From an uncultured Bacteroidales bacterium (GTDB lineage: Bacteria; Bacteroidota; Bacteroidia; Bacteroidales; Bacteroidaceae): a DNA stretch of 64,000 bases. Where the stretch lies: positions 29,712 through 93,711 of the forward strand of contig CADBQP010000027.1 in NCBI GenBank assembly GCA_902796835.1, in the 5' to 3' direction. The notes under the pieces are model-generated. The model did no database searches and was not told the origin of the DNA. It saw nothing but the letters and a program-made list of their open reading frames with translations. The first letter of the stretch is position 1. Each line of letters opens with the position of its first letter. A program made the translations under genes and the position numbers. This document shows, piece after piece, positions 51,911 through 60,649 of the stretch.

Positions 51911-51942
51911 GCCGACAGCAAGGAGTCTGCTTTAGAGAGAAA

Positions 51943-52009
51943 AAAGAGTTGGCTCGACTGTTCGAACAGTTGAGCCAACTCTTTAAACTACCGGGCCGAC
52001 AGTTTCAAC
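51943..52009. repeat. 21-bp-period repeat copy 4 (3 units; 42-bp hairpin)
   Basis: AGTTGGCTCGACT-GTTCGAAC-AGTTGAGCCAACT-CTTTAAAC-TACCGGGCCGACA-GTTTCAAC. Confidence 0.85.
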
Positions 52010-52077: not shown

Positions 52078-53625
52078 CTATTGGGGCGCCATCTTAAAGC
52101 GGAAGGGGACGTTGCAAGTCACAGGCACAGCCTCTCCATTCCTGATGGCCGGTTTGAAACGGGGCATCGACTTGACTACACGCACGGCCTCGCTGTCACA
52201 ATCGGGCGAAAGGCTTTTTGCCACTTGCACATTGCCCACACTACCATCGGTTTCTACTACAAATCTCACTACTACGCTTCCCTCTATGCCTTTTTTCATG
52301 GCCTCGGCAGGATATTGCGTGTGGCTTCCCACAAAAGCCATGAGCGCCTGCATGCCGCCAGGAAATTCCGGAGGCGAGTCGGGCAACCCTTGGGAAGCTT
52401 CGACTGGTTGCTCTACGGCCAGCGGAGCCGTGAGAGCCTGGCACACGCGATCTTGGAAGGCACGCCCAGTGGAGCCTCTTCGCAGCCCGTTGTTGATTAT
52501 CACGAAGCAGAGTTCGTGGCCGTTGGCTGCCGTGCAATAGCCAGCCAGACTGCTCACACCAGCCACGGTGCCTGTCTTGGCCCGCACGTTGAGATAGGCA
52601 CTGCCCGCGGTCATACGACTGCTGAGAGTGCCATCGCTTCCGGCAAGAGGTAGGCTCAGCCGAAACAATGAATAGGCACTCGGCACGGCGTGGACCTTGC
52701 GCAACATGGCGAGCAGGAGCTGAGCCGTAGTATAGTTGTAGAGCGACAGTCCGGAGCCATCGGCCACCTGATAGTGGTCGGGGTCGAAACCCATCTCGGC
52801 AATGACGCTATTAATCTGGCTGGCAGCCTGCTTGCGGCCGGCATAGGGCTGCCCACCAATAGCAGCCAATTGATAGAACATGGATTCAGCCATGTTGTTG
52901 TGGCTGTCTTTCATCATCGGTATGAGCACCTGCTCTAAACCATGACTACGTACACTAACTTCGGCGGCTGAGGCAGGCAGGCTTCCGAAGAGCACATTGC
53001 CCGAAAGGCCAATGCCGGCGGCGGAAAGACTGGCGGCAAAGGTGGGAGCAAAGATATCTTTTCCTTTGTAGAGCAAGGGAGTGAGCGGAGTGGCCTCATC
53101 GTCCCAGCACCATCCCCAGCCCAGCTGCAGAGTGTCCTTCATGGAGACGTCGAGCAGTACGTTGCCGCTGATGCTGTCTATGCCCAGACCTTTCAGCGTA
53201 GCCATGAACGATTGCATGTCATCAGCATCGAAAAGGGGGTCGAAACCTCCGCGCACGCAAACGCTGCCCATGAGCACGGAGTCGGAAATGGAGCCGTCAA
53301 CGTAGAGTCGCGTCACATACTCATAGCCCACACCGAGGCGCATGAGGGCGGCCACGGCGGTTATAATCTTCTGGCACGAAGCCGGACGCATGAGCTGACG
53401 CTCATTGTGCGCATAGAGCATGCAACTGTCGGTGAGGTCGTAGACGCTGATGGCCACTTGCGTACGCTCAAAGACGTCGGACATGAGCAAACTGTCGAGA
53501 CGCGAAGACAGTACGGCGCGCAAATCGGAGCCAACTGCGGGCATTGGCTTCTGGGCTCCGACAGAACTTGCCGACAGCAGCAGCGCACAAAATAGAATGC
53601 GCAGGGAATGGGAGATATTGAGCAT
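52078..53625 (-). CDS. dacB: D-Ala-D-Ala carboxypeptidase/endopeptidase (PBP4, S13) fused to a TonB C-terminal domain
   Basis: Signal peptide; PASCQK, SHN, KTGT; C-terminal PEFPGG...QYP.EA...GIEGSVVVRFVV..DG...EAVRVVKSMPRFKPA. Confidence 0.9.
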   Translation of the reverse strand: MLNISHSLRILFCALLLSASSVGAQKPMPAVGSDLRAVLSSRLDSLLMSDVFERTQVAISVYDLTDSCMLYAHNERQLMRPASCQKIITAVAALMRLGVGYEYVTRLYVDGSISDSVLMGSVCVRGGFDPLFDADDMQSFMATLKGLGIDSISGNVLLDVSMKDTLQLGWGWCWDDEATPLTPLLYKGKDIFAPTFAASLSAAGIGLSGNVLFGSLPASAAEVSVRSHGLEQVLIPMMKDSHNNMAESMFYQLAAIGGQPYAGRKQAASQINSVIAEMGFDPDHYQVADGSGLSLYNYTTAQLLLAMLRKVHAVPSAYSLFRLSLPLAGSDGTLSSRMTAGSAYLNVRAKTGTVAGVSSLAGYCTAANGHELCFVIINNGLRRGSTGRAFQDRVCQALTAPLAVEQPVEASQGLPDSPPEFPGGMQALMAFVGSHTQYPAEAMKKGIEGSVVVRFVVETDGSVGNVQVAKSLSPDCDSEAVRVVKSMPRFKPAIRNGEAVPVTCNVPFRFKMAPQ

Positions 53626-53647
53626 CTTATGAATAGCGTGAGGTTAT

Positions 53648-53698
53648 AAAAAAAACGAAAAGTGAGACATGCGCATTCATGTGGGCACCACTCACTTT
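53648..53698 (-). terminator. Probable terminator after the skp genes
   Basis: AAAGTGAG/CTCACTTT stem followed by a T-run on minus strand. Confidence 0.55.
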
Positions 53699-53722
53699 CC
53701 GTTAGCCTAATGACGGCTTAGC

Positions 53723-58491: not shown

Positions 58492-59196
58492 TCACCATTC
58501 GTCCTTATTGCAGGTGGGACACTTTTCTGAGAAACTATAGGTGAGTGTAAACAATGCCACGTTGTAATGGTCTTTGTTTTTGAACATTTGAGATTTGATG
58601 CCGTGTGGCGCCTCAAGCCCTTCGAGTTTGTCGCTCGTAGTGAAATGCATGCGCCACTCAAAACCCAGATTCAGGCGCGGAGCCACGCGATATTTTAGGC
58701 CAAAGCCCAAGGGTATGGTAGGAGCAAAGGCTTTCCCTTTACTTGAATACACAGCGCCCAGTCCTAACTGCAGATAGGGCACGAGACGATGTAGGCCTTG
58801 ATAGCCCTTATAATATCCATAGGGCAGGAAGTGGAGTTCGTAGAGCGCGCTGAGATCGATGAGAGAGGTGCTGAACTCATATTGCAATCGGTCTGAGCCT
58901 GCTTGCCCCACCACTGCGGGCATGAAATCGTCCACATTCTTGGTGTTTCCCGAAAGACTGGCATATCCCAACGAGAGTTTCACGGCTGAACGGCGATTGA
59001 TGACGTAGCGAAAGGTGCCGCTGCCTTGAAAACCAGGCTGACCGAAAAGTTTTGTATTGGCATCGTTCACACCAAACAGTCCGCCGAGACCGCCACCTAT
59101 CTCCATGGTATACTCGGCATCTTCTTGTGCCATAGCAGGCAGCAGGGGAAGAAAACTAAATAATATTAATATTATATGGTGTGAAAGCTTCTTCAT
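58492..59196 (-). CDS. Outer-membrane beta-barrel, PorG/DUF6089-like
   Basis: Signal peptide, EIGGGLG, alternating beta-strand pattern, SDKLEG; position directly upstream of uppS. Confidence 0.7.
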   Translation of the reverse strand: MKKLSHHIILILFSFLPLLPAMAQEDAEYTMEIGGGLGGLFGVNDANTKLFGQPGFQGSGTFRYVINRRSAVKLSLGYASLSGNTKNVDDFMPAVVGQAGSDRLQYEFSTSLIDLSALYELHFLPYGYYKGYQGLHRLVPYLQLGLGAVYSSKGKAFAPTIPLGFGLKYRVAPRLNLGFEWRMHFTTSDKLEGLEAPHGIKSQMFKNKDHYNVALFTLTYSFSEKCPTCNKDEW

Positions 59197-60584
59197 TATT
59201 TTCGGGGCTTCTTATAGACGGCGGGCATGTTGTCCCAACCCATTTTGTAGGGACGTCCACGCCACACTTGCCCGCTTCCGCCGCAACATATCCAAATGTA
59301 GTTTTCGCCGTCAACCAAGACACTCAGGCTGTTAGCAGCATCGGCTTGGACCGGCAGCATGTTGCTTGCCTGTGTCCACTGGCGTCCATAGTCGTTCGAC
59401 GCGTAAGGTTGTTCCAGCCCTCCCTCGGCATTCAAACCATAGAGTCGCACTTCGCCGTCGTAGGCTATGAGCGAGGTATGGGCGAGCGAAACAGGATAGG
59501 GCTTCGCCACATCGGAGTTTTGCGGCAGGTAGTTCCAATCAAAGATGTTTATTCCTTTCTGGTCTACATCGCGTTTCCACACTGCAGCCTCACCCCCCGA
59601 GAGCCCTGCCAGGACTAGACACGTGTAGTTTGAGTTGGTGCGTGAGGGCAGGCTCACTACAGCCAGCGGGCTGTTAGGTAGGGGGGCATCTTCGTCAAGG
59701 GGCTGTTCCTCCCAGGTGCTTCCGTCGGAAGACGCATAGAGCTTTCCTTCCGAGACTGCCAGCATTTGATTGCCGACCACTGCCAGCGCCTCAAAGGGGA
59801 CTGGAGCCGTGGCTGCTGTCCAATTGACGGCGTCGGTCGAGGTTTGCAAGTTTCCGCTGCTGCTGAGCGCATAGTATTGTGTTCCCATTGCCACCACGCT
59901 TTCTACGTTGATGTCGGTCGCACCCAATGGCGTACGCATCCATTCTGGCGACGAAGTGGCTTGAGCAGTAAGCACCACGGGCACTGCGCCCTCCATTCCA
60001 AAAATGGCAAGTGTAGAACCGCAAAGAGCAGCCTTCACATTCGAAAGGGCTGCCAGCTCAGGCACTGTGGCGGCAACGGGCCAAGCATATTCTTCGCCGT
60101 TTTGCTGATGAACGTTGATTTCAACTTTGTAAGGGCGCTCCACATAGCCTTCTTCCGTAAAGGCATATACTGTCACCGTGCGCGGTGCACTAAAGTCGGT
60201 GCTGTCGGTCAGTACGAATGTGGTGTCGTTTCCGGTTGTGAGCGACTTGATAGCCATTATGGCGCCTACATATGAAAAGTCTGTAAACACCACCTTTTGG
60301 GCATCGGTGCCTACGGGAAGGGAGTCGGCGTTGTAAATGCGCCCTGCCGTCTGGTCGATGTGCATGGGATAGAGTGAGCCTACGATTGAGGCATAATAGA
60401 GACTGTCTGCACCGCTGTCGGTTGTGGCATGGCGCAGGCAGCGAAGGGAACCCAGGGTCACGTTCGACACATAGGCTGCCTGCGTATATTCGGAGTCATC
60501 GCTGCTGCTTGTACTACACGATGCCAGGCCTGCCACGAGCAGCAGGAGGGCTAACCAGGACAGACCTGAATAATGTTGCTTCAT
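59196..60584 (-). CDS. Predicted surface lipoprotein (DUF6242-like)
   Basis: Lipobox LASC followed by S/D/E-rich export-like signal; IYNADSLPVGT; W-containing repeats. Confidence 0.7.
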   Translation of the reverse strand: MKQHYSGLSWLALLLLVAGLASCSTSSSDDSEYTQAAYVSNVTLGSLRCLRHATTDSGADSLYYASIVGSLYPMHIDQTAGRIYNADSLPVGTDAQKVVFTDFSYVGAIMAIKSLTTGNDTTFVLTDSTDFSAPRTVTVYAFTEEGYVERPYKVEINVHQQNGEEYAWPVAATVPELAALSNVKAALCGSTLAIFGMEGAVPVVLTAQATSSPEWMRTPLGATDINVESVVAMGTQYYALSSSGNLQTSTDAVNWTAATAPVPFEALAVVGNQMLAVSEGKLYASSDGSTWEEQPLDEDAPLPNSPLAVVSLPSRTNSNYTCLVLAGLSGGEAAVWKRDVDQKGINIFDWNYLPQNSDVAKPYPVSLAHTSLIAYDGEVRLYGLNAEGGLEQPYASNDYGRQWTQASNMLPVQADAANSLSVLVDGENYIWICCGGSGQVWRGRPYKMGWDNMPAVYKKPRK

Positions 60585-60649
60585 AGGTTTATTTTTCTTC
60601 GTGGGCGATTTGCTATGCCTTGCATAGGGTCGCACTTCTCATTAACGCG

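Follow-up and report, generated by a model that had tools for sequence, protein, structure and literature searches.

The 64,000-nucleotide stretch of DNA analyzed here, referred to below as the window, comes from an uncultured Bacteroidales bacterium of the family Bacteroidaceae (GenBank assembly GCA_902796835.1, contig CADBQP010000027.1, positions 29,712 to 93,711). On its reverse strand, at window positions 52078-53625, it encodes a protein of 515 amino acids (aa) in which a penicillin-binding protein (PBP) of the PBP4, or peptidase S13, family is joined in one chain to a C-terminal TonB domain (TonB_C). An earlier reading of the DNA letters, made by a model and called here the sequence-only reading, had pointed to this open reading frame (ORF), and the frame is open over the whole of the length given there. 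The appended TonB_C is itself already known in Bacteroidota, and the novel part is the soluble cell-wall hydrolase as its partner. The literature that we searched contains no description of an architecture combining S13 with TonB_C. The "TonB-like" protein SjdR of Anabaena was considered as a parallel and set aside, being without a TonB-like periplasmic domain according to its own paper (PMC8262864). The mechanism that we favor, and to which we give about an even chance, is that the domain passively docks the enzyme at TonB boxes under the outer membrane. A broader reading is put forward more tentatively, namely that the un-energized TonB_C is an address label, which parks the cell's only DD-endopeptidase/carboxypeptidase at TonB boxes or at some other machine presenting a strand.

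The catalytic module occupies aa 25-400 (52426..53553, reverse strand, as for all parts of the gene). It matches the Pfam family Peptidase_S13 (PF02113) at 4.1e-73, with 247 bits against a cut-off of 22.8 and an end near aa 394, and the NCBIfam PBP4 model (TIGR00666) at 3.3e-64, with 217 bits against a cut-off of 107.8. The equivalog of the E. coli type of DacB (NF008322) stays below its cut-off, at 171 bits against 527. Among solved structures, the module matches 1w5d, the PBP4a of B. subtilis, at 2.7e-40 and 2ex2, the PBP4 of E. coli, at 1.1e-36. The active site had been described as intact, and its three motifs do align with those of both structures, including SxxK at S83-C-Q-K86 with the catalytic serine (53368..53379), SxN at S241-H-N243 (52897..52905), and KTG at K350-T-G352 (52570..52578). 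Across 73 homologues, S83, K86, S241 and K350-T351-G352 are invariant and N243 is nearly so (at least 90% conserved). By family and motifs, the fusion protein would be a DD-carboxypeptidase/endopeptidase. In the full-length AlphaFold2 (AF2) model, the predicted local distance difference test (pLDDT) of the PBP4 core is mostly above 95.

The three domains known from E. coli PBP4 and B. subtilis PBP4a are not all found in the protein, as residues 149-251 of PBP4a, a segment of about 100 residues which we take to be domain III, have no counterpart in it. About 15 residues stand in their place, as they do in all Bacteroidales homologues; positions of about 160-235 of the Pfam S13 profile are unmatched, and the AF2 model shows a loop there. 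The missing segment is, judging from these alignments, a trait of the whole Bacteroidales subfamily and not of the fusion, and the protein can be classed as a member of the S13/PBP4 family from a Bacteroidales subfamily devoid of the presumed domain III. The replacement loop, which continues to aa 194, contains a GWGWCWDD motif (aa 169-176; 53098-53121, reverse strand) present in all or nearly all of the 73 homologues.

The conserved end of PBP4, FQDRVCxALT(R), falls at residue 400, where most homologues stop. Here the chain continues as PLAVEQPVEASQGLPDSP and then PEFPGG, the motif with which the C-terminal domain begins in the TonB proteins of Bacteroidales, the two of this genome among them. 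The connecting segment is a disordered Pro/Glu linker (aa 401-418; 52372..52425). Residues 406-423 have a pLDDT below 50, in keeping with a flexible tether some 20 residues long. The short linker of the sequence-only reading is hence confirmed, at about 18-23 disordered residues; with 0.35 nm allowed for each residue, its extended reach is estimated at no more than about 7 nm. In some homologues (P0003, P0010, P0016, P0020, P0036, P0037), the position of the linker is taken by a low-complexity tail, acidic or rich in proline, that can reach about 70 residues.

The linker leads into a complete TonB C-terminal domain, which begins with PxFPGG and covers aa 419-515 (52081..52371). Pfam TonB_C (PF03544) recognizes it at 1.2e-22 over aa 435-512, with 80.6 bits against a cut-off of 24.6, and NCBIfam tonB_Cterm (TIGR01352) at 4.7e-16, with 58.9 bits against 27.1. 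The domain had been called correctly, and the bounds first proposed for it, 52078-52385, are right to within 14 bases, the TonB_C-derived part starting at P419 (52371). The PxFPGG and QYP motifs are both present. In the full-length AF2 model, the pLDDT of TonB_C is 40-60, which comes from alignment depth and not from disorder. A separate model of aa 401-515 alone, built on a 26-sequence alignment, has a mean pLDDT of 85 and a core above 90. Its best fold matches in the Protein Data Bank, found with Foldseek, are all TonB C-terminal domains (6i97_D, 9dc4_T, 2gsk_B and 2grx_C), several of them in complexes with transporters, and the match to 6i97_D has a target-normalised TM-score of 0.75 and a root-mean-square deviation of 1.6 A. 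Domain III of TolA is a far worse match. Pairing with TonB boxes is predicted for the last strand of the three-stranded sheet, aa 502-510.

Despite this domain, the protein is not a TonB. The full-length TonB equivalogs (PRK10819 series) reach only 19-23 bits against cut-offs of 265-448, and both the TonB membrane anchor and a long Pro-rich spacer are absent, as the sequence-only reading had remarked. The sole hydrophobic stretch at the N-terminus is like a signal peptide (aa 1-24; 53554..53625), which, as read from the residues themselves, appears to have a charged n-region, a hydrophobic core and a predicted cleavage site after VGA and before Q25. It has no acceptable lipobox (I-L-F-C), and AF2 places a helix at residues 2-21 followed by a disordered stretch at 20-31. 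A Sec-type signal peptide of this kind would export the enzyme to the periplasm. Without an anchor, a segment for coupling to ExbB/ExbD or a spacer that spans the periplasm, the TonB_C cannot transduce energy.

The genome is 2.0 Mb in size and 94% complete, and contains two canonical TonB genes, 13 ORFs with a Plug domain (TonB-dependent transporters) and a single S13 gene. No S11 peptidase gene was found in it, which leaves the fusion protein as its only recognizable low-molecular-weight DD-peptidase of these two families. The TonB_C fold is established as binding TonB boxes by beta-strand augmentation, at its strand beta-3 (PMC11658791). This activity, together with the 13 Plug-domain ORFs, makes passive docking at TonB boxes the best-supported mechanism. 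In this mechanism, TonB_C would act as a passive docking module, with strand aa 502-510 pairing by beta-augmentation with an exposed strand of the partner. This exposed strand would most probably be a TonB box, presented by one of the approximately 13 TonB-dependent transporters of the genome. Docking would thereby confine the enzyme to the plane of the peptidoglycan, no more than about 7 nm away from the outer membrane's inner face. The sequence-only reading had suggested that peptidoglycan-opening activity may be recruited by the domain to the space beneath SusC-like transporters or other large outer-membrane machines, and this suggestion is compatible with the modeled canonical fold and with a tether of about 20 aa.

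The fusion is found well beyond the assembly that contains the window. The same ORF is present in 28 contigs from other metagenome assemblies, and its flanks are the same in all of them, with the order skp, skp, fusion gene and a convergent ferredoxin gene. The pipelines behind these contigs differ, and include MEGAHIT-style names with different k-mers, scaffolded assemblies and Logan. The names of the contig records point to several cattle and sheep rumen studies, and the rumen is probably the home of the host species. To the extent that assemblies can tell, this recurrence excludes an assembly chimera, and with it the artefact that the sequence-only reading had named as fatal to its claim. 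Clustered at 90% identity, the fusion protein belongs to a group of 41 sequences from NCBI, ENA and Logan assemblies. The 28 contigs and the window represent 12 DNA haplotypes, all of them free of frameshifts and premature stops, and the 15 aligned protein variants, of 514-539 aa, include no truncations.

The distribution of the fusion was followed through about 1,350 genomes of Bacteroidota and through the listed matches of protein searches, and among the Bacteroidota searched it is confined to one species. In the genus, represented by 148 species including that of the window, a PBP4 match occurs in 136. The fusion is absent from the 147 congeners, since the PBP4 match stops at residues 398-433 in all but the genome of the window. 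A query of aa 340-515, which takes in the end of PBP4 together with TonB_C, was chosen so that a fusion outscores either part, and found no second fusion in the family, the order or the phylum, each sampled with 400 genomes. In other Bacteroidota, 20 long ORFs (412-670 aa) end in TonB_C, and none has an upstream PBP4 module. In a search of 5.8 billion proteins, only the protein's own cluster joins PF02113 to PF03544 among the 120 matches listed. The next matches on that list are 49-57% identical, in addition to one 321-aa fragment at 61%, and none of them has a TonB_C. When aa 396-515 were used as the query against the same collection, the matches listed carried TonB_C on M56 (BlaR1-like) and VIT-vWA proteins, and none carried it on an S13 enzyme outside the protein's own cluster. 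A search of 1.84 billion representatives with aa 340-515 returned as its best 150 matches proteins with three to six tandem copies of TonB_C, and is uninformative on the architecture. Such tandem proteins are very numerous in public collections, some being longer than 1,000 aa (P0184-P0333; P0135, P0136).

The genome contains three TonB_C domains, which are the fused one and those of the two canonical TonBs (C10:25844-26152 and C57:9135-9434; 289 and 276 codons from stop to stop). Both of these TonBs possess a membrane anchor as well as a charged spacer. The fused domain shares 49% identity with that of the first TonB, and its identity to any TonB_C found does not exceed about 54%. In a maximum-likelihood tree of 51 domains, it groups as the sister of the same family's canonical TonBs, which are about 280 aa long and include the genome's own; the support is modest (90/82). 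Its branch, at 0.74, is about equal to that of the genome's own TonB (0.73). The tree, though weakly supported, suggests that the fused domain came from the family's own housekeeping TonB lineage. The likeliest history is the in-frame capture of the C-terminal domain of a TonB paralogue onto a disordered PBP4 tail that already existed. In 11 loci of congeners, no TonB_C gene lies beside dacB that a deletion could have fused to it. One congener has three consecutive TonB_C open frames of 158, 165 and 283 codons from stop to stop (G005:C120:4629-7567); two of them may be too short for a full-length TonB, and the frames rank among the fused domain's best matches.

The strongest competitor of passive docking is that the fusion is a tolerated, near-neutral accident, in which a TonB_C was joined in frame to a disordered PBP4 tail and proved harmless without being useful. 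We regard this as possible, while doubting it. The observations in its favor are largely those that also weigh against a docking function. The fusion occurs in one species among the 148 of the genus and about 1,200 other Bacteroidota genomes, and a single-species occurrence gives no comparative support for a selected function. The nearest PBP4 is only 55-57% identical, which leaves no close sister among the sampled species by which to date the fusion. Related PBP4 proteins carry variable and evidently dispensable low-complexity tails at the same position. Additionally, a stop-loss allele is tolerated, which extends the protein to 539 aa by adding 24 residues directly after the binding strand, and which is carried by the NCBI metagenome-assembled genome GCA_034186025.1 as well as by an independent Logan assembly (L040:301-1920, L041:301-1920).

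The sole post-fusion evidence on whether the domain is maintained is polymorphism within the species, expressed as the ratio of non-synonymous to synonymous polymorphism (pN/pS). The PBP4 part (codons 1-400) has 36 synonymous and 22 non-synonymous changes, with a pN/pS of 0.20, and is under clear purifying selection. Given also that it belongs to the only S13 gene of a genome in which no S11 gene was found, this indicates that the protein is in use. For TonB_C (codons 419-514), 5 synonymous and 9 non-synonymous changes give a pN/pS of 0.53, and in its last strand (codons 501-514) 1 synonymous and 5 non-synonymous changes give a value of about 1.5. Amino-acid changes therefore cluster in the predicted ligand-binding strand, where they make up five of six changes, and this, like the pN/pS of 0.53 against 0.20, speaks for the near-neutral accident. 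Against it stand the core of the domain (codons 419-500), with 4 synonymous and 4 non-synonymous changes and a pN/pS of 0.30, and the difference in constraint between the PBP4 and TonB_C parts, which is not significant (Fisher p = 0.13). The freedom of all 12 haplotypes and 15 protein variants from truncations and frameshifts points the same way. Among 50 other Bacteroidota TonB_C domains, 27 positions show a conservation of at least 80%, and the fused domain retains 26 of these despite an identity of at most 54% to any known relative; the genome's own canonical TonBs retain fewer (fractions of 0.89 and 0.70). This conservation, however, could be inherited from a TonB paralogue that was functional until shortly before the fusion. 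The evidence is mixed; TonB_C shows no visible decay, yet any constraint on it is putative and may be relaxed at the binding edge.

It is also conceivable, though we judge it unlikely, that the docking is functional and that the partner is something other than a TonB-dependent transporter, such as peptidoglycan or a strand ligand in the beta-barrel assembly machinery (BAM) or in type IX secretion. The genomic context is what brings such partners to mind. The gene order is BamI-like ORF, porG, uppS, bamA, skp, skp, fusion gene, convergent ferredoxin gene, porT/sprT and enolase, with PorT/SprT recognized at 247 bits against a cut-off of 125. PorG (161 bits, cut-off 130) and the BamI-like ORF (201 bits, below its cut-off of 370) lie at 58492-60635 on the reverse strand, directly upstream of uppS-bamA, and type IX secretion and BAM accessory genes are thereby interleaved at this locus. 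In two congeners, dacB likewise follows skp-skp. Kaserer et al. (2008) reportedly found that the C-terminal domain of E. coli TonB has an affinity for peptidoglycan. Bacteroidota reportedly have no classical Tol-Pal system and connect the outer membrane to peptidoglycan through tethers of other kinds (PMC12204202).

The sequence-only reading had placed the gene directly downstream of bamA-skp-skp and near porT and a PorG-like gene. This neighborhood is correct (bamA, two OmpH/skp genes, PorT/SprT, PorG), with the qualification that a strong terminator-like hairpin lies between the second skp and the fusion gene. The hairpin with its U-run (53643..53703, reverse strand; -23.1 kcal/mol, z -5.1) ends about 18 nucleotides before the start codon, which leaves no visible room for a promoter, and the fusion gene may accordingly be expressed by read-through from bamA-skp-skp. 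A second hairpin with a U-run, resembling an intrinsic terminator, follows the fusion gene (51940..51984, reverse strand; -27.4 kcal/mol, z -7.6, none of 200 shuffles being as good). The position of dacB after skp-skp is shared by only 2 of the 11 congeneric loci examined and absent from the other 9, which makes the adjacency older than the fusion and often lost. The first hairpin and this patchy adjacency weaken a functional reading of the linkage to bamA-skp-skp, and they argue against a partner in the BAM or type IX machinery. The closest relatives of the fused domain, in sequence and in fold, are moreover genuine TonB C-terminal domains, several of them from transporter complexes. The recruitment idea of the sequence-only reading is itself tempered by the restriction of the fusion to a single species, the weaker-looking constraint on TonB_C, the hairpin and the scarcity of the skp-dacB adjacency.

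A much less probable alternative is that the soluble TonB_C competes for TonB boxes and damps TonB-dependent uptake, with PBP4 as a mere carrier. Two canonical TonBs serving 13 Plug-domain ORFs would suit such a competitor, and Howard et al. (2001) reportedly observed that overproduced periplasmic C-terminal fragments of TonB inhibit TonB-dependent transport in E. coli. However, no regulatory context was seen at the locus, and a damping role leaves the fusion to a cell-wall enzyme unexplained. As the only PBP4 of the cell, encoded behind a terminator-like hairpin, the protein suggests low and constitutive expression instead. An uncleaved signal anchor, which would give the protein a TonB-like topology, is unlikely, because its N-terminus resembles that of ordinary homologues and is without the S-x3-H-x6-L-x3-S motif. 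The idea that the fusion arose artificially in assembly or gene calling, from a chimeric contig or from two genes joined by a frameshift, has next to nothing left to it, since, although the window belongs to a metagenome-assembled genome of 68 contigs, the ORF and its flanks recur across several studies and differing pipelines (ENA, NCBI, Logan), no congener has a TonB_C gene beside dacB for a frameshift to join, and the GC content is level across the junction.

Knowledge of the placement and restraint of peptidoglycan hydrolases comes largely from E. coli and its adaptors, NlpI for example, and is scarce for Bacteroidota. A natural fusion of PBP4 with TonB_C would offer a simple and testable example of a hydrolase tethered to proteins of the outer membrane. 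It could also be used to test whether the motor-less TonB_C of M56 and VIT-vWA proteins act as passive docking modules. If the TonB_C of the fusion protein is indeed an address label, the cleavage of cross-links would be coupled in space to the sites of outer-membrane proteins, with whatever benefit this may bring to the cell. TonB_C would then serve more generally for passive docking, in addition to being a transducer of force, and the clustered changes in the binding strand would reflect a tuning of partner choice. The weight of the case is limited by its occurrence in one uncultured species and by post-fusion selection on TonB_C being no more than putative.

Several known systems resemble the fusion in part. 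The PBP4 of E. coli and the PBP4a of B. subtilis have a homologous catalytic module with the same SxxK, SxN and KTG motifs, and are likewise soluble, periplasmic, low-molecular-weight PBPs. They lack the C-terminal TonB_C of the fusion protein, which was seen on no other S13 protein found. Genuine TonBs, such as that of P. aeruginosa with FoxA (6i97) and that of E. coli with BtuB (2gsk), share the Pfam family and the fold of the fused domain. In contrast to them, the fusion protein is devoid of the anchor, the coupling to ExbB/ExbD and the Pro-rich spacer, and its domain follows about 20 residues behind an enzyme, where it cannot deliver force.

The M56-TonB_C and VIT-vWA-TonB_C proteins, which are common in Bacteroidales, are the next-best matches to the fused domain among those listed in the search of 5.8 billion proteins, and they too carry a portable C-terminal TonB_C on a protein that is not a TonB. 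The fusion protein can be grouped with this loosely bounded set. Many taxa have the M56 and VIT-vWA architectures, and the M56 proteins are bound to the membrane, whereas the S13 fusion is a soluble cell-wall hydrolase of one species. The outer-membrane lipoprotein NlpI of E. coli is established as a scaffold that binds PBP4 (PMC7049810). Its outcome is like that of the proposed docking, in that endopeptidase activity is placed beside the outer membrane. NlpI is a separate lipoprotein adaptor, while the adaptor proposed here is a covalently fused domain of unrelated fold with a putative partner. The GltG and GltJ proteins of the Myxococcus gliding machinery are non-TonB proteins that bear a TonB_C (PMC8262864, PMC12204202). 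They use the domain outside nutrient uptake and link it to components of the outer membrane, as is proposed for the fusion protein. GltG and GltJ are anchored in the inner membrane and coupled to a motor, whereas the fusion protein would be soluble and enzymatic.

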